This document shows positions 34,019-44,800 of a stretch of 46,439 bases of DNA, in pieces. The position numbers and the translations under genes are program-made. Positions within the stretch are counted from its first letter, which is position 1. Each line of letters begins with the position of its first letter. This DNA comes from a virus. Taxonomy: Duplodnaviria; Heunggongvirae; Uroviricota; Caudoviricetes. The stretch is taken from the IMG/VR virus record IMGVR_UViG_2579779067_000003; one strand, written 5' to 3'. A model generated the notes under the pieces. The model was given only the letters and a program-made list of their open reading frames with translations. It did no database searches and was not told where the DNA came from.

Positions 34019-35068
34019 TTAGGCCAGCACACCAATTGCCAGCGCGCGATCGATAAATCGAAAAATCAGCTCCAGTTGGGAGCCATACTTCTCTTCAAAT
34101 GCCACGGTACCCGTATGCAACTCGTCGTGATGCTTTCTGCACAAAGGCAACACAAAGAGATCATGTGCTTTGGTTCCCATTCCGCCCTGCCCGTGACCAA
34201 TCAGATGATGCGGATCGTCGGCTGGCATACCGCAGCAAGCACACGGCTGTGTCTTAACCCAGCGTGTGTATTTCTCCTTAACCCAACGGTGACGTTTAGG
34301 CAGCTTCATGAAAGATTCCGGAGACTCAGGATCAACGGTGATGCTTACCACCGTTTTTTCCTGTGATGGGTTTTGTCGCTGGTGGGCGTGAGGCAACGGT
34401 GCAAGATTTTTTGTGCGCTGTTTCAATATGCTGGTGGCGGTCTGCTCTCCCGGTACGATGTCGCTTTCGCGGTACACCGAGCAGTTTTTTTCCGCTGGTA
34501 ATCCCAGCGAGCGACGTAATACCGCTTCCGGTAGCGCGTCCGCCACCTGATTGCGGACCGCCCACCAGGATAATTCAGCCAGAGATAATTCACGCTCCTG
34601 CGTACCGCTTATTGCGTGACCGATGACGTCAATCATCCATGCTGACAGGTTTTGATGAGCAAGTTGCTCGAGTGATTCGGATGTCTGGTCACGCAGCTGG
34701 TTGTCGCAGTGCCAGCACAACACCATTGCGCCGGTACCATAACGGTGAATAACGGTTTCGCTGTGATGATAATCGCCGTGTGGCCACTGGCAGGATTTAA
34801 TATGGCGCAACAGCCAGTCAGACAATGCACCAGCACCACCAGCAGTACGAATTACCCGTGCATTACTGAAAAACGGCAGCAATGTTTTGTCTTCCACCAG
34901 CGGCTGGCGAACGGCAGGAACGACCCCGGACGGCAGATTACGCATGCTTTTCGGTTCCGGCTCCACCAGTACCCGGGTATTGTGGAATACCGGCATGGAT
35001 TCACGGCCCGGCTTAACGACCACCAGCCCGAGTTCCGGTACCAGAACAGGTCGAAGTAATACCCGCAC
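34019..35068 (-). CDS. ydfU: YdfU-like protein (DUF968)
   Basis: 349 aa with C-terminal Cys/His cluster ([43 protein letters not shown]); nin-region position. Confidence 0.7.
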
Positions 35069-35069
35069 G

Positions 35070-35348
35070 TTACCTCCAGATGCGTTGCTGGAATGTACGG
35101 GACGGACGCGGTGGGCGTTCGGAGTAAGGCAATCTGACTGAGATTATCCAGTGACGGTAGTCGAGACTAAGGGCTTTCTTAACCTCGTATCCGCGCCTGC
35201 GGTAACACTGAATTATCCATTCAGCCTGCTCTTCAGTGCATGGAGGGTGCTGGAACCATTCAGACTTGAATGCGTGAGAATACCGCTCGTGCGTGCAGGC
35301 AAGAACGGGCGAATTATCAGAATTGTAATATTTTACGTTGCGTGCCAT
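35070..35348 (-). CDS. Hypothetical nin-region protein
   Basis: 92-aa ORF with ATG start, Cys/His/Trp-rich; possibly Rem-like but not verified. Confidence 0.4.
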   Translation of the reverse strand: MARNVKYYNSDNSPVLACTHERYSHAFKSEWFQHPPCTEEQAEWIIQCYRRRGYEVKKALSLDYRHWIISVRLPYSERPPRPSRTFQQRIWR

Positions 35349-35414
35349 CGGTTTTCTCCGGTGGCACGGTGTTACTCAGCGGGAGTTCAGCCCCGCGCAA
35401 GATTGTAGATGAGT

Positions 35415-35678
35415 TTATTCTTCTGCAAAAGCTGAAAAGCCTGCTTTTATTCCGATCTCTTTCAGTGCCTGTAATGAAGTGACAAACTCACCTTCGCGCA
35501 AGATAAATCCGTCTGTCACTCGACCATCCACAAAATTAATTAACGCAGCCCCATTCTTTCGCAAACACATAATGCGGTAATGACTAACAAGATTTCCATT
35601 TTCAACGCACACAGCATAGAGGCCATCTTCACAAAAATTTTTACGCAGTTCTTCGATGTTCATCATCATGTTCATCAT
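35415..35678 (-). CDS. Hypothetical nin-region protein
   Basis: 87-aa ORF beginning MMNMMMNIEELRKNF; no family assigned. Confidence 0.4.
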   Translation of the reverse strand: MMNMMMNIEELRKNFCEDGLYAVCVENGNLVSHYRIMCLRKNGAALINFVDGRVTDGFILREGEFVTSLQALKEIGIKAGFSAFAEE

Positions 35679-35797
35679 CAGAATCCTTCCGGATAATTAG
35701 CTCTCCCCTTTAAGGGACCATCCCTCTTCTCCCTGCGCGCTACTTAAGTATTTTTGATTCTATTCCGGCACCGTCCAGAACTTCAAACGCGTTGAAA

Positions 35798-35826
35798 ATA
35801 AAAACAAAAACCCGCCGAAGCGGGTT
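35798..35826 (-). terminator. Intrinsic terminator of the hok transcript
   Basis: Plus-strand A-rich run then AACCCGC-CGAA-GCGGGTT; on minus transcript hairpin followed by UUUUUGUUUUU. Confidence 0.6.
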
Positions 35827-35894
35827 AAGTGCGGGTGCGTTGAGGATGCCTGCCACATCAGAGGTGGCGAGGGATTTCTCCCTCGCCGGGTCTC

Positions 35895-36050
35895 TTACTC
35901 CTCAGGTTCGTAAGCTGTGAAGACAGCGACCTCCGTCTGGCCGGTTCGAATTCGTACCTCGCAAAGGTCTTTCCTCGTTACCAGTGCCGTCACTATGACG
36001 GTTAAACAGATGACGATCAGGGCGATTAACATCGCCTTTTGCTGCTTCAT
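35895..36050 (-). CDS. hokD: Hok-family type I toxin
   Basis: MKQQKAMLIALIVICLTVIVTALVTRKDLCEVRIRTGQTEVAVFTAYEPEE (51 aa); track ORF with 19-codon upstream extension may correspond to the overlapping mok frame. Confidence 0.85.
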   Translation of the reverse strand: MKQQKAMLIALIVICLTVIVTALVTRKDLCEVRIRTGQTEVAVFTAYEPEE

Positions 36051-36280
36051 AGCCTGCTTCTCCTTGCCTTTCGGCACGTAAGAGGCTAACCTACATGTGT
36101 CTAGCATGAAATTGGCCTCAGATTAATGTTAAGCGTCTTGCAGGACGCGTAATGTTAACTGGGGCTTTTCTCTATCTGCCTTTGGTGTTCATGCCTGAGA
36201 CAGATAGCCTCAAGCACCCACGGAAACTTTACTAAAGGAGTTATAGCTTTTCCAGTAGTCTCAACATATTCACATTGCTA

Positions 36281-37837
36281 TTACCTATCAAACAACGGAT
36301 GTATTACAAAATCTCTCTTCATATCAGTAATATCCAAATTAGGTTTATCAAAAGATGAATATATAATTAAAGATGCTGTTTTCCTTATGCCAACCACGCC
36401 TACGACGAACCAGACTTTAAGTAACTCCTCAAAATTCATCAATATTTTTGTATGTTGATCATCCTCTTTAACTACAGTCAATCTATCAAGTAAATGCTGC
36501 GATATATCATCTTTTACTGCTTGTCCTATGTTTGAGACTGTAAAATCAGAAAATGAAATCAAGGAAAGCACATCCAAATATTCTTCGATAAACGGATATA
36601 TGCTTTTCCATTCTGTAACCAAAGCTCTCTTTCTGGACGAATAAAATTTCTCTTCGGCAATTAACACAATATTTTCATTCATGTTAACCATACCATCGCA
36701 CTCAGAAAGACATATATTTACGAAATTAATTGCATCTCTAGGCCTAAGCATTGTTCTGTCAAGGATATAATCATCTGCTCCAATACCTTCAACTGTAAAA
36801 TTAAAAATATCCTTCATTAATACAGACTTATTTGATTGATATCTATTTTTAACCAAATGGTTAATTCTAGCATCAATAATCTCTCTTATTTCCGTTTTAT
36901 TCCATGATATGGAATATATTAAAGATTGATCTTTCTCATCCTGCCTTAAACTACTTTTATAAATTCCCATTAAAATATCTGTTCTTATTGATATCAGAAC
37001 CTTAACCGACTTTATATCTAATAATTCTCGAAAGGCCTCAAGAAGAGCATTAATAAAGTCATATCTGATGGCGCTCGTGCTTAACCAAGATTTATCTAAA
37101 TCATCGATACTGATTACTATTCTAACCTGGTTTGAGTCAGCGAACTCCTCTTTAAGTATTTTAATAAGTTCTTTTTGTTTAAAAAGAAGTTCACGACTCA
37201 CATAACTTGAAGTTTCTGATTGTATTTTGGCTGTATCAGAATTAGATATTTTACCACCCACACCAACAGCGGAATTTCCGAGTTTGAATGACAAATCACT
37301 TTCAAGCTTGTTACTTATTTCAATGAGCGCTTTATCATTGAAGAAATTTTCTTTAAATTGTTCAATATAATCATTCGCAACTTCTGGTTTATACGGTTTC
37401 TTCTTACCACCAATAAGATCTTTAATTTCCTCAAAAAAGCTTTGATAGGAAGAACGATAAACGGCTGGTATAACTTTCATAAGTAATACATGCAGCCATA
37501 ACGATTTATAAAACCCACGTAAATCTATCCCTTTCGAGATCAAATCAGATATAAACACATTGTTATTAATATGTTCAAATATCGTATTTTCTGCCTCTAT
37601 TGTGTCATGCAGCTTAATATTTCCTTTGTCTAATATTTTTTTAAGCAACGCAGACTTACCGCTTCCTGTTCTTCCAACAATAATTCTTCTTGTAAAATCA
37701 GGATTCTTCTCAGTAGAGTCAAAATTCACAATACCTTTAAAAACATTGGACTCATAAAAACAAGCATCAAGATAAGAATCAGTTTCCGCCTCTAATTTTC
37801 CAATCTCATCATTATTTCTGAATTTATAGGCATTCAT
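36281..37837 (-). CDS. AT-rich P-loop NTPase, KAP/PifA-like by motif (candidate phage-exclusion protein); function unproven
   Basis: 518 aa; Walker A GRTGSGKS at about residue 55, Walker B-like IVISIDDLDK about 180 residues later, RPRDAINF arginine-finger/sensor-like motif; sampled 60-nt lines are roughly 25-30 percent G+C versus about 45-50 percent in tail genes (hand counts). Confidence 0.6.
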   Translation of the reverse strand: MNAYKFRNNDEIGKLEAETDSYLDACFYESNVFKGIVNFDSTEKNPDFTRRIIVGRTGSGKSALLKKILDKGNIKLHDTIEAENTIFEHINNNVFISDLISKGIDLRGFYKSLWLHVLLMKVIPAVYRSSYQSFFEEIKDLIGGKKKPYKPEVANDYIEQFKENFFNDKALIEISNKLESDLSFKLGNSAVGVGGKISNSDTAKIQSETSSYVSRELLFKQKELIKILKEEFADSNQVRIVISIDDLDKSWLSTSAIRYDFINALLEAFRELLDIKSVKVLISIRTDILMGIYKSSLRQDEKDQSLIYSISWNKTEIREIIDARINHLVKNRYQSNKSVLMKDIFNFTVEGIGADDYILDRTMLRPRDAINFVNICLSECDGMVNMNENIVLIAEEKFYSSRKRALVTEWKSIYPFIEEYLDVLSLISFSDFTVSNIGQAVKDDISQHLLDRLTVVKEDDQHTKILMNFEELLKVWFVVGVVGIRKTASLIIYSSFDKPNLDITDMKRDFVIHPLFDR

Positions 37838-38086
37838 TGAACAAAAGCTCCATGCTATCTGTAGTTTGGTTTTTAATTATAAAAACATTTTATTAACAAT
37901 TCCACTAAATTGAAACATAATGACAACATGAAACAAAACGTTAGAGGTCAGTTGGCATCAATTGCTCTACCTAAGCTCTGTTACCGACTCCCCGACTACT
38001 CCCCAAAATTTTTTGTCTCTGGTATCCGTTGCTGTTCCGGCGACATTCCTGCGCCGCAGCCTGTTTCGACGCTGTTGACCTTTCGG

Positions 38087-38299
38087 TTACCGCTTTTGCA
38101 ATGCAGATTTTTCCTGCCAGTTCGGTACCAGCCGATATTTTTTCCCCTCCCGCACAAGCTGCCCGTACCGCTGTATGTTCTGGAGCAGGTTTTGAATTTT
38201 CTTGTTGGTCACACCAAGAGCATCAGCCAGCTCCCGGAACGTGGCTTCCCCGTTCTCCAGCAAATGCTGGATTGCGGCCTGTTGATTACTGCTGTGCAT
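38087..38299 (-). CDS. Small winged-helix-like protein translationally adjacent to the O-like gene
   Basis: 70 aa, ATG 2 nt after O-like stop with AGGGGG upstream; HTH-like segment TFRELADALGVTNKKIQNLL. Confidence 0.45.
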   Translation of the reverse strand: MHSSNQQAAIQHLLENGEATFRELADALGVTNKKIQNLLQNIQRYGQLVREGKKYRLVPNWQEKSALQKR

Positions 38300-38301
38300 A
38301 C

Positions 38302-39267
38302 CTACCCCCTGAATCCCGGTGGAATTTCGCTGTCCGGCTCAGAAATATGATTCACACAACGCTGTACAGGTGAACGCCCCAGGCGAATGACCAGTTCATC
38401 CCATTTTTCGCGGAGCTTTGAAGGGCTCATGATGTTTTTTACCCAGAATGGATCTCGCTGAACCCGACCAAACATTTCGCAAATTTGTTTATGGCTTCTG
38501 CCATCCAGCATCCGCATTGTGCGCACGTCATTAGCCCAGGCAGTCCAGTTAGGCTCTTTTGGTCGCATGATCTCGCCATCATCACTGGCGGCCTGTTCGT
38601 AAAGGCTCACGATTCGTGCCCAGATCCATTGCGCACACGCCAAATCCTCCTGATTCCCCCACTGACGTTTTTTAGCACTGAAAACCACCGCGTCAGGATA
38701 TTGGGTTAAATAATTCTGTTCAGCTGTCTGCGGGTCCGATTGCGAAGCTTCCGGACGAAAAGTGTTTTTATTCTCTGTAGTAATCTCTGTTGTATTCTCT
38801 GTAAGATCATCAGGCCATTTTGACCCGATGACATTGGGTCGTTTTGAACCAATGGAGCGTTTCATTTTGACCTCTTCCATCGTGTCATTTTGACCTGATG
38901 GAGCGGCGCATTTTGAACCGATGGATTCGCTCAATTTGCCATCATCTAAAAGCTCGCTCCCATAGTTAATCGTGTAGAAATTGGTCATATCGCGCTTTGA
39001 TTTATTGAGCTTTTCACAACGCAAAAGCCCCAGCGTTTTCAGACTTGCAAACGCGCGCTTTAACGTTGACTCTGACCAGAATGGGAACTGTTCCAGCCAT
39101 TGTTCCGTTGTGTTGTAAATCCAGCGAACACCATCACATTCCATGCCGGAATTGGTATCTCTCAACCAGTAATGCAACTGCTGCAACACAATGGCTTCAT
39201 TTAAGCCAATCTTCATCGCAAGCTGTGTGTTTATAACCAGTGGGCGTTCAGCAAAAAGAAGGCTCAT
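38302..39267 (-). CDS. Replication initiator (lambda O-like / phage replisome organizer N-terminal domain)
   Basis: About 320 aa with N-terminal winged-helix region (LQQLHYWL...) and internal repeated SIGSK peptide motifs encoded by DNA iterons; ATG at 39265-39267; track start 39321 is a TTG extension. Confidence 0.7.
   Translation of the reverse strand: MSLLFAERPLVINTQLAMKIGLNEAIVLQQLHYWLRDTNSGMECDGVRWIYNTTEQWLEQFPFWSESTLKRAFASLKTLGLLRCEKLNKSKRDMTNFYTINYGSELLDDGKLSESIGSKCAAPSGQNDTMEEVKMKRSIGSKRPNVIGSKWPDDLTENTTEITTENKNTFRPEASQSDPQTAEQNYLTQYPDAVVFSAKKRQWGNQEDLACAQWIWARIVSLYEQAASDDGEIMRPKEPNWTAWANDVRTMRMLDGRSHKQICEMFGRVQRDPFWVKNIMSPSKLREKWDELVIRLGRSPVQRCVNHISEPDSEIPPGFRG
38817..38932. repeat. 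Candidate replication origin: five direct iterons (consensus about ATTTTGAcC-n-GATGGA) at roughly 23-bp spacing inside the O-like gene, flanked by an AT-rich tract
   Basis: Repeat starts hand-mapped at 38817, 38841, 38864, 38887, 38910; adjacent AT-rich segment 38760-38815. Confidence 0.6.
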
Positions 39268-39769
39268 AATTCCATCCAGCTTTTTGTTGGTATTGCTGTC
39301 GATACGCAAGTTTGAAAGCAATTGCTTTTTCTATAAGTTCGTCAGTTTCACGATCCACTACGGCAGGATCAGCAAAAAGCAGTCCGGACTCCACCACATC
39401 GCCATATTCTTTGTTTAACCCGGCGATCATGTACGTGATGCTTTTTCCGTCACTAATTTCACGATACAACCTGAAATCATTAATCCGGATAGCCTCCATA
39501 ATTGCAGGCACTAGCGCCGTGAACTTTTCACGCTTATCCCTGGTGTCGATAGCCTTCCAGCGTTCGAATATCTTCACTCGATTAACGCCAAGCGCTCGCT
39601 GATCAACCGCGCCACCTTCATCTGTGACACGCTGAACATCGATGTTCGGGCGCTCTTTCAAAGCCCAGAATGCTTCAGTGATTAATATCGTCGCCTGCTC
39701 CTGTGTCATTCCTGGTCGACATATCCAAGCATCCAGAGCCTCACGAGCCTGTTCAGGAGTGATTTTCAT
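39248..39769 (-). CDS. Hypothetical early-region protein (cII-position)
   Basis: 173-aa ORF between cro-like gene and O-like gene; no family assigned. Confidence 0.45.
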   Translation of the reverse strand: MKITPEQAREALDAWICRPGMTQEQATILITEAFWALKERPNIDVQRVTDEGGAVDQRALGVNRVKIFERWKAIDTRDKREKFTALVPAIMEAIRINDFRLYREISDGKSITYMIAGLNKEYGDVVESGLLFADPAVVDRETDELIEKAIAFKLAYRQQYQQKAGWNYEPSFC

Positions 39770-39980
39770 TGTTCAACCGCCCCGCCCGCTTCGTCTTACG
39801 ATATTCGTCATAAACCTTGGGATCATACAGAAGCTCGCCGCCAGATGCCTCCTGTAGACGCATCGCGCGACCTTCAGGAACCAGCTCTTGCCATTGAGAA
39901 ACAGCAGATGGGTCAACGCCAGCAGCTTTCGCTACTTTGGCTTTCGTACCGTAAAAATTAATTACGTCTGATTTAAACAT
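39753..39980 (-). CDS. dicC: Cro-like transcriptional regulator (DicC-like)
   Basis: 75 aa MFKSDVINFYGTKAKVAKAAGVDPSAVSQWQELVPEGRAMRLQEASGGEL...; GGAGGTG upstream of ATG at 39978-39980; divergent from dicA. Confidence 0.7.
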   Translation of the reverse strand: MFKSDVINFYGTKAKVAKAAGVDPSAVSQWQELVPEGRAMRLQEASGGELLYDPKVYDEYRKTKRAGRLNNENHS

Positions 39981-40057
39981 CGCACCTCCAATATTGAGTT
40001 TTCTCAATGCTAATCACTCAAGGAATCTCAAGTCAAGGGTTATTAAGATATCTAAAT
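39981..40057. promoter_or_regulatory. Divergent promoter/operator region between dicC-like and dicA-like genes
   Basis: Contains palindrome TTGAG-TTTT-CTCAA (39994-40007) and repeated CTCAAG half-sites. Confidence 0.45.
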
Positions 40058-40465
40058 ATGAACGAGAAAACTTTAGGTCAACGCATTAGAGAAAGACGTA
40101 AGCAGGTAGGCTTAAGTCAAAACGGTTTAAGCAAAGCTGCTGGCGTATCTGGCTCATCAATTTCATTATGGGAAAGTGACCATACAGCCCCGCGCGGGCA
40201 AAATTTGCATCGCCTCGCCGAGGTATTGCAATGTTCACCAACCTGGATACTGTTTGGCGACGAGGACAAAACACCAGCTCCCCCTGTTTCACTCGATAGT
40301 GCCTTAGACTTATCGGAAGATGAGTTAGAGATGCTGCGTTTGTATCGCGCACTTCCTAAATCAGAGCAACAAGCACAACTCAGCGAACTCCGCGCCCGCG
40401 TTGAGAATTTTAATCGCCTGTTCACCGAGCTATTAGAGGCTCGCAAACGCAACAAGCATCAATAA
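40058..40465 (+). CDS. dicA: DicA-like repressor (XRE-family HTH, cI-type)
   Basis: MNEKTLGQRIRERRKQVGLSQNGLSKAAGVSGSSISLWESDHTAPRGQNLHRLAEVLQCSPTWILFGDEDK... closely resembles K-12 DicA. Confidence 0.85.
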   Translation: MNEKTLGQRIRERRKQVGLSQNGLSKAAGVSGSSISLWESDHTAPRGQNLHRLAEVLQCSPTWILFGDEDKTPAPPVSLDSALDLSEDELEMLRLYRALPKSEQQAQLSELRARVENFNRLFTELLEARKRNKHQ

Positions 40466-42328: not shown

Positions 42329-44800
42329 ATGAGTAAAGTCTTTATTTGCGCCGCTATTCCTGACGAACTGGCAACAAGGGAAGAAGGCGCTGTGGCTGTA
42401 GCCACAGCCATTGAAGCTGGCGACGAACGCCGTGCTCGAGCAAAATTTCACTGGCAGTTCCTGGAACATTATACGGCTGCTCAGGACTGCGCTTATAAAT
42501 TTATTGTCTGCGAGGATAAACCTGGCATACCTCGCCCTGCCCTCGATTCATGGGATGCTGAATATATGCAGGAAAACCGCTGGGATGAGGAGTCTGCTTC
42601 TTTTGTCCCGGTTGAGACTAAATCCGATCCGATGAACGTCACTTTTGACAAGCTGGCCCCTGAAGTACAGAACGCTGTCATGGTTAAGTTCGACACATGT
42701 GAAAACATCACCGTTGATATGGTTATTAGCGCACAGGAATTGTTGCAGGAAGACATGGCAACATTCGACGGACATATCGTTGAAGCGTTGATGAAAATGC
42801 CAGAAGTTAACGCCATGTATCCGGAGCTTAAGTTGCACGCCATTGGGTGGGTTAAGCATAAATGTATTCCTGGTGCTAAATGGCCCGAAATTCAGGCAGA
42901 GATGCGCATCTGGAAAAAACGTCGCGAAGGTGAACGCAAGGAAACCGGAAAATACACGTCTGTTGTTGATCTCGCCCGCACCAGAGCCAATCAACAGTAC
43001 ACTGAAAATTCAACAGGAAAAATCAGCCCGGTCATTGCTGCCATTCATCGCGAATACAAGCAGACATGGAAAACACTGGATGACGAACTGGCCTACGCTC
43101 TCTGGCCTGGTGATGTGGATGCCGGAAACATTGACGGCAGCATCCATCGCTGGGCAAAAAAAGAAGTTATCGACAACGACCGCGAAGACTGGAAGCGTAT
43201 CTCGGCATCAATGCGCAAACAGCCTGATGCCCTTCGCTACGACCGCCAAACTATTTTTGGCCTTGTCCGTGAGCGTCCGATCGACATTCACAAAGAACCC
43301 GTAGCACTGAACAAATATATCTGCGAATACCTGACGACAAAGGGCGTGTTTGAGAATGAAGAAACAGACCTGGGCACTGTTGATGTTCTCCAGTCATCAG
43401 AAACACAAACTGATGCAGTGGAAACTGAGGTATCTGATATCCCAAAAAATGAAACCGCGCCGGAAGCTGAACCATCTGTAGAGCGTGAGGGGCCGTTCTA
43501 TTTCCTCTTCGCAGATAAGGACGGAGAAAAATACGGTCGCGCAAACAAACTTTCTGGTCTGGATAAGGCACTGGCTGCTGGCGCCACTGAAATCACTAAA
43601 GAAGAATATTTTGCCCGAAAAAATGGCACATACACGGGCTTACCGCAAAATGTAGATACCGCTGAAGATTCAGAACAACCAGAACCGATAAAAGTTACCG
43701 CTGACGAAGTAAACAAAATTATGCAGGCAGCCAATATCAGCCAGCCTGACGCCGATAAGTTGCTTGCTGCATCACGTGGTGAATTTGTTGAAGGGATTAG
43801 TGACCCGAATGATCCGAAATGGGTTAAGGGGATCCAGACCCGCGATTCTGTGAACCAGAACCAGCATGAATCGGAACGGAACTACCAAAAAGCGGAACAA
43901 AACAGCCCAAATGCGTTACAAAACGAGCCAGAAACGAAACAGCCTGAACCAGTGGCGCAACAGGAAGTGGAAAAAGTCTGCACCGCCTGCGGTCAGACCG
44001 GCGGCGGCAACTGCCCTGATTGTGGCGCGGTGATGGGCGACGCAACATACCAGGAAACATTCGATGAAGAGTATCAGGTTGAAGTTCAGGAAGATGATCC
44101 GAAGGAAATGGAAGGCGCTGAACATCCACACAAGGGGAACACTGGCGGCAATCAGCATCACGATAGCGATAATGAAACTGGCGAGACGGCAGATCACTCA
44201 ATTAAGGTGAACGGTCATCACGAAATCACATCCACCAGCAGGACGTGTGACCATCTAATGATCGACCTTGAAACCATGGGAAAAAATCCTGATGCCCCGA
44301 TCATCTCAATAGGTGCAATATTTTTCGATCCGCAAACCGGAGATATGGGACCGGAATTTAGTAAGACTATCGATCTGGAAACTGCTGGCGGAGTCATTGA
44401 TCGGGACACCATTAAATGGTGGCTTAAGCAATCACGCGAAGCGCAATCTGCCATTATGACCGATGAAATCCCGTTAGATGATGCACTGTTACAATTGCGG
44501 GAATTTATCGACGAAAACTCCGGTGAATTTTTTGTTCAGGTCTGGGGAAATGGAGCCAACTTCGACAACACGATTTTGCGCCGTTCATACGAACGGCAGG
44601 GGATCCCCTGCCCGTGGCGTTACTACAACGATCGCGATGTACGCACAATCGTTGAGCTGGGGAAAGCCATAGACTTCGATGCCAGAACGGCTATTCCATT
44701 CGAAGGTGAGCGCCATAATGCACTTGATGACGCCCGTTACCAGGCAAAATACGTTTCAGTTATCTGGCAAAAACTGATCCCGAGTCAGGCTGATTCTTAA
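42329..44800 (+). CDS. ydfE: Large YdfE-like protein with C-terminal DEDDh 3-prime-5-prime exonuclease domain and internal zinc ribbon
   Basis: 823 aa; C-terminal motifs MIDLETMG (exo I), GNGANFDNTIL (exo II), HNALDDARYQA (exo III); CTACGQ...CPDCG zinc-ribbon-like; uninterrupted here. Confidence 0.7.
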   Translation: MSKVFICAAIPDELATREEGAVAVATAIEAGDERRARAKFHWQFLEHYTAAQDCAYKFIVCEDKPGIPRPALDSWDAEYMQENRWDEESASFVPVETKSDPMNVTFDKLAPEVQNAVMVKFDTCENITVDMVISAQELLQEDMATFDGHIVEALMKMPEVNAMYPELKLHAIGWVKHKCIPGAKWPEIQAEMRIWKKRREGERKETGKYTSVVDLARTRANQQYTENSTGKISPVIAAIHREYKQTWKTLDDELAYALWPGDVDAGNIDGSIHRWAKKEVIDNDREDWKRISASMRKQPDALRYDRQTIFGLVRERPIDIHKEPVALNKYICEYLTTKGVFENEETDLGTVDVLQSSETQTDAVETEVSDIPKNETAPEAEPSVEREGPFYFLFADKDGEKYGRANKLSGLDKALAAGATEITKEEYFARKNGTYTGLPQNVDTAEDSEQPEPIKVTADEVNKIMQAANISQPDADKLLAASRGEFVEGISDPNDPKWVKGIQTRDSVNQNQHESERNYQKAEQNSPNALQNEPETKQPEPVAQQEVEKVCTACGQTGGGNCPDCGAVMGDATYQETFDEEYQVEVQEDDPKEMEGAEHPHKGNTGGNQHHDSDNETGETADHSIKVNGHHEITSTSRTCDHLMIDLETMGKNPDAPIISIGAIFFDPQTGDMGPEFSKTIDLETAGGVIDRDTIKWWLKQSREAQSAIMTDEIPLDDALLQLREFIDENSGEFFVQVWGNGANFDNTILRRSYERQGIPCPWRYYNDRDVRTIVELGKAIDFDARTAIPFEGERHNALDDARYQAKYVSVIWQKLIPSQADS

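Follow-up and report, generated by a model that had tools for sequence, protein, structure and literature searches.

The closest described counterparts of the locus analysed here are the replication modules of lambdoid phages. In phage lambda the origin lies inside the initiator gene O, with iterons followed by an AT-rich tract at the part of the gene that codes for a flexible linker. The O protein joins an N-terminal DNA-binding domain to a C-terminal recruitment domain, and the C-terminal domain (residues 156-299) co-purifies with DnaB-lambda P (PMC12661323). O-only modules, which have one O homologue and no helicase or loader gene, were recognised in 34 of 314 lambdoid phages (PMC12315714, Genome Res 2025); the accessible text of that survey calls their replication 'not yet understood' and offers no mechanism. 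We analysed a module of this kind in a 46,439-nucleotide stretch of DNA (IMG/VR record IMGVR_UViG_2579779067_000003; hereafter the window), which is a Qin-family lambdoid prophage from E. coli, complete from a sit operon at one end to an integrase gene at the other. As in lambda, its initiator gene follows cro and a gene in the cII position and precedes a gene in the ren position, and its iterons and AT-rich tract lie within the initiator gene; unlike lambda, it has no P gene. The prophage carries one O-homologue gene and no helicase or loader gene, as in the O-only definition. We propose, with a probability of about 60%, that this is a one-gene lambda-type module in which the initiator would use a C-terminal tail resembling that of host DnaT, rather than a phage loader, to reach the host DnaC/DnaB pathway.

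Four further systems resemble the locus in part. E. coli DnaT, encoded directly upstream of dnaC, carries its tail as a flexible 20-residue appendix to a three-helix bundle (PMC5778457). DnaT works at forks together with PriA and PriB and, in contrast to what is presumed for the window initiator, lacks a domain that binds an origin sequence-specifically. The dnaT-dnaC gene order has a parallel in relatives in which a tail-bearing gene lies directly upstream of a DnaC-type gene. DopC-DopE is a domesticated lambda O/P pair, and its authors set DopC beside dnaT-dnaC (Brezellec et al. 2017, PMC5509034). In a layout that resembles the window initiator, DopC combines an O-like N-terminal helix-turn-helix (HTH) domain with a 'DnaT C-ter motif' (PDB 2ru8; PMC5509034). 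Its gene lies in the chromosome, lacks iterons and has a P-type partner, and its similarity to DnaT was reported as an HHpred domain. The Rac prophage has a tail-bearing protein, YdaU, in the initiator position of a YdaS/YdaT-type early operon, with a DUF977 gene following; YdaU is a DUF1376 protein unrelated to the window initiator, and Rac keeps a DnaC homologue, YdaV. The plasmid initiators pSC101 RepA, R6K pi and RK2 TrfA are likewise iteron-binding winged-helix proteins that rely on host DnaB-DnaC. The origins of these plasmids use DnaA boxes and direct contacts of the Rep protein with DnaB or DnaA, whereas the window origin has no DnaA box nearby, and to our knowledge none of the three initiators carries a DnaT-like tail.

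We compared the initiator with DnaT by protein, profile and DNA alignment. Residues 302-321 of the initiator (QRCVNHISEPDSEIPPGFRG) are identical to the end of E. coli DnaT (residues 160-179, its final 20) at 15 of 20 positions. The NCBIfam DnaT model PRK02854 matched the tail only, at positions 160-179, and the PDB DnaT chains 2ru8, 6aep and 9zbt also matched the initiator in the tail only. The DNA of the tail aligns with the 3' end of dnaT, and of the six nucleotide differences that separate the two over the last 13 codons, five are synonymous. The initiator contains the DnaT tail consensus ...SEPDxxIPPGFRG, within which I173-P174-x-G176-F177-R178-G179 was invariant in DnaT from 20 Enterobacteriaceae. 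The IPEGFRG motif appears to be under strong constraint in DnaT, because DnaT of the reduced-genome symbiont Ca. Pantoea edessiphila (loci L406, L407, L413 and L420) has diverged almost everywhere and retains ...IPEGFRG. In L406, L407 and L420, three of the four loci, a dnaC-like gene could be recognised downstream. Both tails are flexible, as judged by nuclear magnetic resonance for DnaT and by low AlphaFold2 confidence (pLDDT) for the initiator. Outside the tail we found no homology between the two families (hhalign probability 3%), and the initiator had no Pfam match to the DnaT three-helix bundle (PF17948). Homology between the C-terminal domains of the initiator and DnaT had looked plausible by eye and was ruled out by the same hhalign comparison, which left only the tail in common; a family-profile search of PDB sequences returned only winged helix-turn-helix (wHTH) regulators. 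Some phage records name this initiator 'Primosomal protein I', a label that presumably arose from the tail match.

The tail recurs in proteins that are otherwise unrelated. Among phage initiators it was present in at least three architectures, namely wHTH with a lambda-O C-terminal domain, DUF1376/YdaU, and HTH_36 with Phg_2220_C. Rac YdaU ends in VNTVSLPDSAIPPGFRG, almost the DnaT tail, and the two genes after it encode, in this order, YdaV, with 50% identity to DnaC across 243 residues, and the DUF977 protein YdaW (K-12; L252 2120-3730). DUF1376-type initiators of 358-362 residues align with the window initiator over the last 20 residues only, at 95% identity. Lambda-O-type initiators can also have a DnaC-like gene next (L043 and others). 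A 127-residue initiator fragment at a contig edge (L266), 94% identical to residues 195-321 of the window initiator, has a YdaV-like gene next. LLS (PQ299149), the O-only phage that has been handled experimentally, likewise has a single O-homologue gene and neither helicase nor loader. Its O protein (L374 8214-9068) differs from the window initiator in having the HTH_36 and Phg_2220_C architecture; it ends in GPVDTKIPEGFRG, and the next gene encodes a Dam methylase, not a loader. Plaque-forming O-only phages with the tail comprise HannyBb, PhiR42_1, mEp460, SfII/SfIV and LLS. The genes that follow loader-less initiators encode PerC-like or DUF977 winged-helix proteins, Dam, a protein with a LexA DNA-binding domain, RusA or an antirepressor, and none is loader-like. 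A scan of species genomes for open reading frames (ORFs) ending in IPEGFRG-stop gave many chance matches outside Enterobacterales; after filtering for an in-frame ORF end and a preceding DnaT-like context, almost all came from Enterobacterales, the clade of the sampled dnaT-dnaC pairs. Literature on YdaU/YdaV and on the SfIV 'primosomal protein' yielded nothing relevant. We conclude that, judged by sequence, unrelated proteins that adjoin DnaC-type genes share a portable tail. A wider idea is that this tail of 12-20 residues, ...[DE]xxIPxGFRG, is a portable peptide that recruits DnaC-type loaders in DnaT and in at least three unrelated phage initiator architectures; we hold this tentatively and give it somewhat less than even odds.

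We next determined which loader gene accompanies each kind of tail. In the family of lambda-O C-terminal domains the globular domain is common and the short end tails are distinct. One class is DnaT-like (..IP[PEKA]GFRG), another (..NTDW[AI]xG[VL].., hereafter NTDW) includes the C-terminus of lambda O itself (...LDLTNTDWIYGVDL), and a third is ..WNxxEAWExx[FL] (WNxxxW); several rarer classes exist besides. We sampled 242 IMG/VR loci by domain alignment and 77 ORFs picked solely for an IPPGFRG-stop ending, and 270 loci had enough flanking DNA for the next gene to be classified, with Pfam checks added. A P-type loader was next in 97 of the 103 NTDW loci and in all 38 WNxxxW loci (135 of 141 combined); the remaining six NTDW loci had no loader, and a DnaC-type loader was found in neither class. 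With the DnaT-like tail (n=119), the loader was DnaC-type in 28 loci, absent in 91 and P-type in none. After collapsing at 70% initiator identity, the DnaT-like tail was represented by 10 clusters with a DnaC-type loader, 9 with none and 0 with P, and the NTDW and WNxxxW tails together by 34 clusters with P, 2 with none and 0 with a DnaC-type loader. The association was also tried prospectively on P0034, a 75% identical relative on the same Qin-like backbone with a WNxxxW-type tail (DWNSADGWEDVL), and the next gene proved to be Phage_lambda_P (PF06992), followed by DUF977. A simpler rule, that a DnaT-like tail means no loader gene, was rejected on the 28 of 119 loci with a DnaC-type gene, and we adopted the rule that tail type matches loader type. 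We conclude that across these loci the tail type is predictive of the loader type. The supply of DnaC, and not of P, by the host would explain why loader-less loci are common with the DnaT-like tail (91 of 119) but infrequent where the tail is P-matched (6 of 141).

The initiator as a whole is mosaic (Table 1): a winged-helix N-domain is joined by a disordered linker to a C-terminal domain of the lambda-O type, and the DnaT-like tail comes last. It has 321 residues from the RefSeq start, an ATG at 39267; the ORF listing offers an alternative in-frame TTG at 39321, which adds 18 codons to give 339 residues. The profile PHROG 391 ('replication initiation O-like') matched it at E=1e-91. In its C-terminal domain the initiator is a homologue of lambda O (BLASTP E=9e-27, 33% identity across 148 residues), and a hidden Markov model of this domain built from relatives picked the same ORFs as lambda O, in a family of 2710 representatives (50%-identity clusters) at E<=1e-3. 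The N-domain had no match to Phage_rep_O (PF04492) at E<=0.1 in Pfam, against E=6e-36 for lambda O itself, and is a winged helix different from that of lambda O. The label 'O-like' given by an earlier reading of the DNA alone (hereafter the sequence-only reading) therefore fits the C-terminal half and the overall architecture and does not fit the N-domain. The AlphaFold2 model of the initiator has low overall confidence (mean pLDDT 58). In a Foldseek search of this model against the PDB, the N-domain weakly matched RepA_N plasmid initiators (4PQL, 4PT7 and 5KBJ, E ~0.02-0.04), the C-terminal domain had no matches and the whole output consisted of weak N-domain hits to wHTH and RepA_N proteins (E>=0.017). 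PADLOC returned no match for the initiator.

The candidate origin lies in the part of the gene that encodes the linker. The 9-mer GTTCAAAAT occurs five times on the coding strand with at most one mismatch, at gene positions 403, 426, 449, 472 and 496 (spacings 23, 23, 23 and 24), and Tandem Repeats Finder reported a period-23 array in the gene. The 15-nt consensus CATTTTGAMCNRATG, with at most two mismatches, has four matches in 38816-38923 (108 bp); over the whole window it has seven, against a chance mean of 2.16, and none of 100 shuffles reached seven. The five direct repeats at about 23-bp spacing described by the sequence-only reading are thus confirmed, and we add a sixth, weaker unit; lambda, for comparison, has four iterons of ~19 bp. 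Several units are partly palindromic (CATYGG...CCRATG). That reading had also assigned repeated SIGSK peptides to the five repeats, which holds in part: IGSK is repeated, with three copies (SIGSK twice and VIGSK once) and not five, since the 23-bp spacing is not divisible by three and only three units share a frame. The AT-rich tract that it placed beside the repeats contains the lowest-GC 40-mer of the gene (38757-38796, 27.5% GC against 47% for the whole gene), which, read in the direction of the gene, comes straight after the array. The tandem repeat TCTCTGTAGTAA within this tract is reminiscent of the short motifs that recur in DNA-unwinding elements. No DnaA box was found within 38000-39400. 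In-gene repeat clusters are a family-wide feature, since at least four clustered 9-mer repeats were present in 46 of 47 unique same-tail relatives and in 0 of 179 codon-shuffled controls. Two close relatives, P0012 and P0018, miss 31 linker residues (93 nt, about four 23-bp iterons) of 38808-38946, and iteron number therefore varies by deletion of units. The order of iterons and AT-rich tract, together with the homology to lambda O's C-terminal domain, supports an origin inside the initiator gene in the lambda arrangement, as had been suggested.

A loader gene was found neither next to the initiator nor elsewhere in the prophage. Scans with Pfam, PHROGs and NCBIfam detected no P-, DnaC- or DnaB-like protein among the ORFs of 34019-40465, in agreement with the sequence-only reading for the downstream genes, and PF06992 (lambda P) had no match near the initiator, the next gene encoding a 70-residue wHTH protein. 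A helicase-loader homologue elsewhere in the prophage, which the same reading had raised as a contrary finding, did not appear either: the RefSeq annotation of identical DNA, covering the whole prophage with 64 features, has no lambda-P, DnaC/IstB or DnaB-like gene. The sequence-only reading had further suggested that the module might be defective. A defective remnant that lost its loader gene would accord with the IS1 and IS2 insertions in the lysis and tail-fibre genes of this copy and with the existence of related initiators that have a YdaV-like gene, but we regard it as very improbable. The isolated phages HannyBb, PhiR42_1 and mEp460_ev081 have the same gene order and no loader, their initiators are 95.3-95.6% identical to the intact ORF of the window, relatives at 45% occur in phages SfII and SfIV, the architecture is common to thousands of database members, and 34 of the 314 lambdoid phages surveyed are O-only (PMC12315714). 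Because isolated phages have the identical loader-less layout, we conclude that the module is not defective and is a member of the recognised, unexplained O-only class. The remaining suggestion was that the 70-residue protein or the downstream P-loop NTPase supplies the loader function. Both genes are immediately downstream on the same strand, and their predicted nature was correct: the small protein matches TrmB (PF01978, E=8.5e-6) and other wHTH profiles in Pfam as well as PHROG 142 'Ren-like' (E=2e-8), with weak similarity to the N-terminus of DUF977, and the NTPase is a 518-residue Sll1717-family ATPase (NCBIfam E=6e-53). As loaders, however, they are barely credible. Ren, DUF977 and PerC-like winged-helix genes fill the ren position after P, after YdaV or straight after O; because such genes occur with and without loaders, the 70-residue gene is not specific to loader-less modules, and it probably has no part in replication. 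In plaque-forming phages that share the initiator, the ren position is filled by another gene (DUF977) and an ATPase of this kind is absent, and relatives have SIR2, a 449-residue unknown protein or small genes in the variable slot between the ren-position gene and hokD. The ATPase gene has a GC content of ~0.31, which marks it as foreign cargo, and its product has no similarity to DnaC, IstB, DnaB or P in Pfam, PHROGs or NCBIfam.

In the mechanism that we favour, the N-terminal winged-helix domain would bind the five or six 23-bp iterons inside the coding sequence of the initiator itself, the initiator would presumably open the adjoining AT-rich tract, and the disordered tail would act as a short linear motif that links the origin complex to host DnaC-dependent loading of DnaB. 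The most likely direct partner of the tail would be DnaC or the DnaB6-DnaC6 complex. By analogy with lambda, whose O engages P-DnaB through its C-terminal region (PMC12661323), loader choice would most simply lie in the final dozen residues of such initiators; a phage copy of DnaC would be optional because the host itself supplies DnaC. The first alternative of the sequence-only reading, use of host machinery by the initiator, is supported, and the DnaT-like tail makes it specific. Several points weigh against it. A 2017 review states that a DnaT-DnaC interaction is not documented (PMC5778457). The accessible text of a 2026 preprimosome paper indicates that DnaT's N-terminal domain, not the tail, may recruit DnaB/DnaC, and that its C-terminal domain sits docked on PriA HD2/CTD by way of an interface that is hydrophobic and conserved (PMC13377028). 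In the literature on a binding partner of the DnaT tail we found only the descriptions 'flexible tail' and 'needed for trimerisation', the latter from earlier biochemistry. The loader counts come from naive same-strand ORF calls, within 1.5-3 kb, compared with three references (DnaC, YdaV and lambda P), many of the 270 loci are close relatives and not phylogenetically independent, and the tail and downstream DNA move jointly as a recombination module, which makes the association partly one of linkage. Finally, a small group of IMG/VR loci (L030-L037) encode lambda-O-domain initiators of 363-381 residues with neither a DnaT-like tail nor a downstream loader, so that the tail is not the sole route to the loader-less state. 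These initiators bear a C-terminal extension of ~70 residues ending ..SIWKQAIEMLQETQ and represent a second, unexplained loader-less type.

A rival reading is that the tail recruits the restart primosome, either by docking on PriA or by co-oligomerising with host DnaT, after which PriA-PriB-DnaT-DnaC would load DnaB at the opened origin, much as at the phiX174 primosome assembly site or the ColE1 R-loop. The docking of DnaT on PriA and the part played by the tail in forming the DnaT trimer would both accord with this, and the restriction to Enterobacterales fits it equally well. Direct DnaC binding, PriA docking and DnaT co-assembly all end in DnaC-dependent loading, so recruitment of the restart primosome would also fit the link with DnaC-type loaders. 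We nevertheless consider it unlikely. The available text of PMC13377028 mentions no contact between PriA and the tail itself; the three-helix bundle, which is the DnaT domain seen on PriA and single-stranded DNA, is missing from the phage proteins; and the tight adjacency of the tail to phage DnaC-type genes is more simply read as direct contact between initiator and loader, as with lambda O and P. Alternatively, the initiator could behave like those of iteron plasmids, its globular domains contacting DnaB and possibly DnaA while host DnaC delivers the helicase and the tail hitch-hikes without a role in loading. Loader-less iteron replicons are normal in plasmids, the N-domain weakly resembles RepA_N initiators, and the movement of tail and downstream DNA together between unrelated initiators, as in those aligning only in the last 20 residues, would accord with a passenger tail. 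Yet IPxGFRG is kept after unrelated linkers in four unrelated protein architectures, the differences of the tail from dnaT are mostly synonymous, the DnaT-like tail never accompanies a P-type loader and the region has no DnaA box, and we judge a purely passenger tail to be decidedly improbable.

Parts of this picture are already described: O-only modules (in the accessible text of PMC12315714), the flexible DnaT tail (PMC5778457), the O-like HTH with a 'DnaT C-ter motif' in DopC (PMC5509034), and DnaC-type loaders and O/P pairs as domesticated phage genes. In the literature searched, which includes the available portion of PMC12315714, we found no statement that O-only initiators end in a DnaT tail, and none that the tail is common to several unrelated initiator families or predicts loader type. 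The association would provide a rule for phage replication modules, by which the loader in use could be read from the final dozen residues of the initiator. It bears on the replication of O-only lambdoid phages, about one in ten in the accessible part of the recent survey (PMC12315714), and on how DnaT passes DnaB-DnaC to a restarted fork. If true, a portable loader-recruiting tail would explain DnaB loading in O-only lambdoid phages and identify the long-missing contact between DnaT and DnaB-DnaC in replication restart, and it would point to an origin of the dnaT-dnaC operon from an initiator-loader gene pair of a phage. If the tail binds DnaC, it would also be a peptide naturally suited to compete in a replication step that is essential in enterobacteria.

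Table 1 Coordinates of the initiator gene, its parts and its neighbours in the window
Feature	Position	Strand	Remarks
P22-Cro-like gene	39753-40007	-	early-right operon, gene 1
YdaT/CII-like gene	39248-39769	-	early-right operon, gene 2
Initiator gene	38302-39267	-	early-right operon, gene 3; stop codon 38302-38304
Winged-helix N-domain, residues ~10-105, presumed iteron-binding	38953-39240	-	AlphaFold2 pLDDT 65-86; profile matches to wHTH regulators
Disordered inter-domain linker, residues 109-181	38725-38943	-	AlphaFold2 pLDDT ~27; coincides with iterons and AT-rich tract
Iteron array, five strong 23-bp units and one weaker (38924-38946)	38808-38946	.	core GGTCAAAAT / GTTCAAAAT on coding strand
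AT-rich tract, presumed DNA-unwinding element by analogy with ori-lambda	38745-38807	.	35% GC; adjoins iterons
12-bp tandem repeat TCTCTGTAGTAA, 2.7 copies	38772-38803	.	inside AT-rich tract; encodes TENTTEITTEN peptide
Lambda-O-type C-terminal domain, helical, residues 183-295	38383-38721	-	BLASTP to lambda O residues 135-270; AlphaFold2 helices, pLDDT 55-81
DnaT-like C-terminal tail QRCVNHISEPDSEIPPGFRG, residues 302-321	38305-38364	-	predicted disordered, pLDDT 32-46
70-residue winged-helix gene	38087-38299	-	early-right operon, gene 4; 'ren' position; starts 2 nt past initiator stop
AT-rich Sll1717-family P-loop ATPase gene	36281-37837	-	early-right operon, gene 5; 37838-38086 lies upstream of it
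hokD, rem, ydfU (DUF968), Q	after ATPase gene	-	rest of early-right operon

The LH85-a chromosome and nine further complete genomes carry DNA identical to the window. The slot occupied by the ATPase gene looks like a hotspot for defence or cargo genes; PADLOC gave no match for the ATPase, and NCBIfam a weak, sub-threshold match to the anti-phage protein DS41_1. The hokD-type toxin gene (35895-36107, - strand) and an 823-residue RecE-like exonuclease (annotated 'exonuclease'; 42329-44800, + strand) are ordinary in Qin/Rac-type prophages. IS1 disrupts a DUF2514 (Rz-like) lysis gene and IS2 a tail-fibre gene (L004 16290-16987 and 41895-43123, the same DNA in reverse orientation), and this copy of the prophage is probably not plaque-forming, though its replication module is intact. 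The 448-residue database entries P0002-P0004, in which the YdaT-like gene is fused with the initiator, probably result from gene calls made by frameshift or read-through over the 20-nt overlap at 39248-39267.

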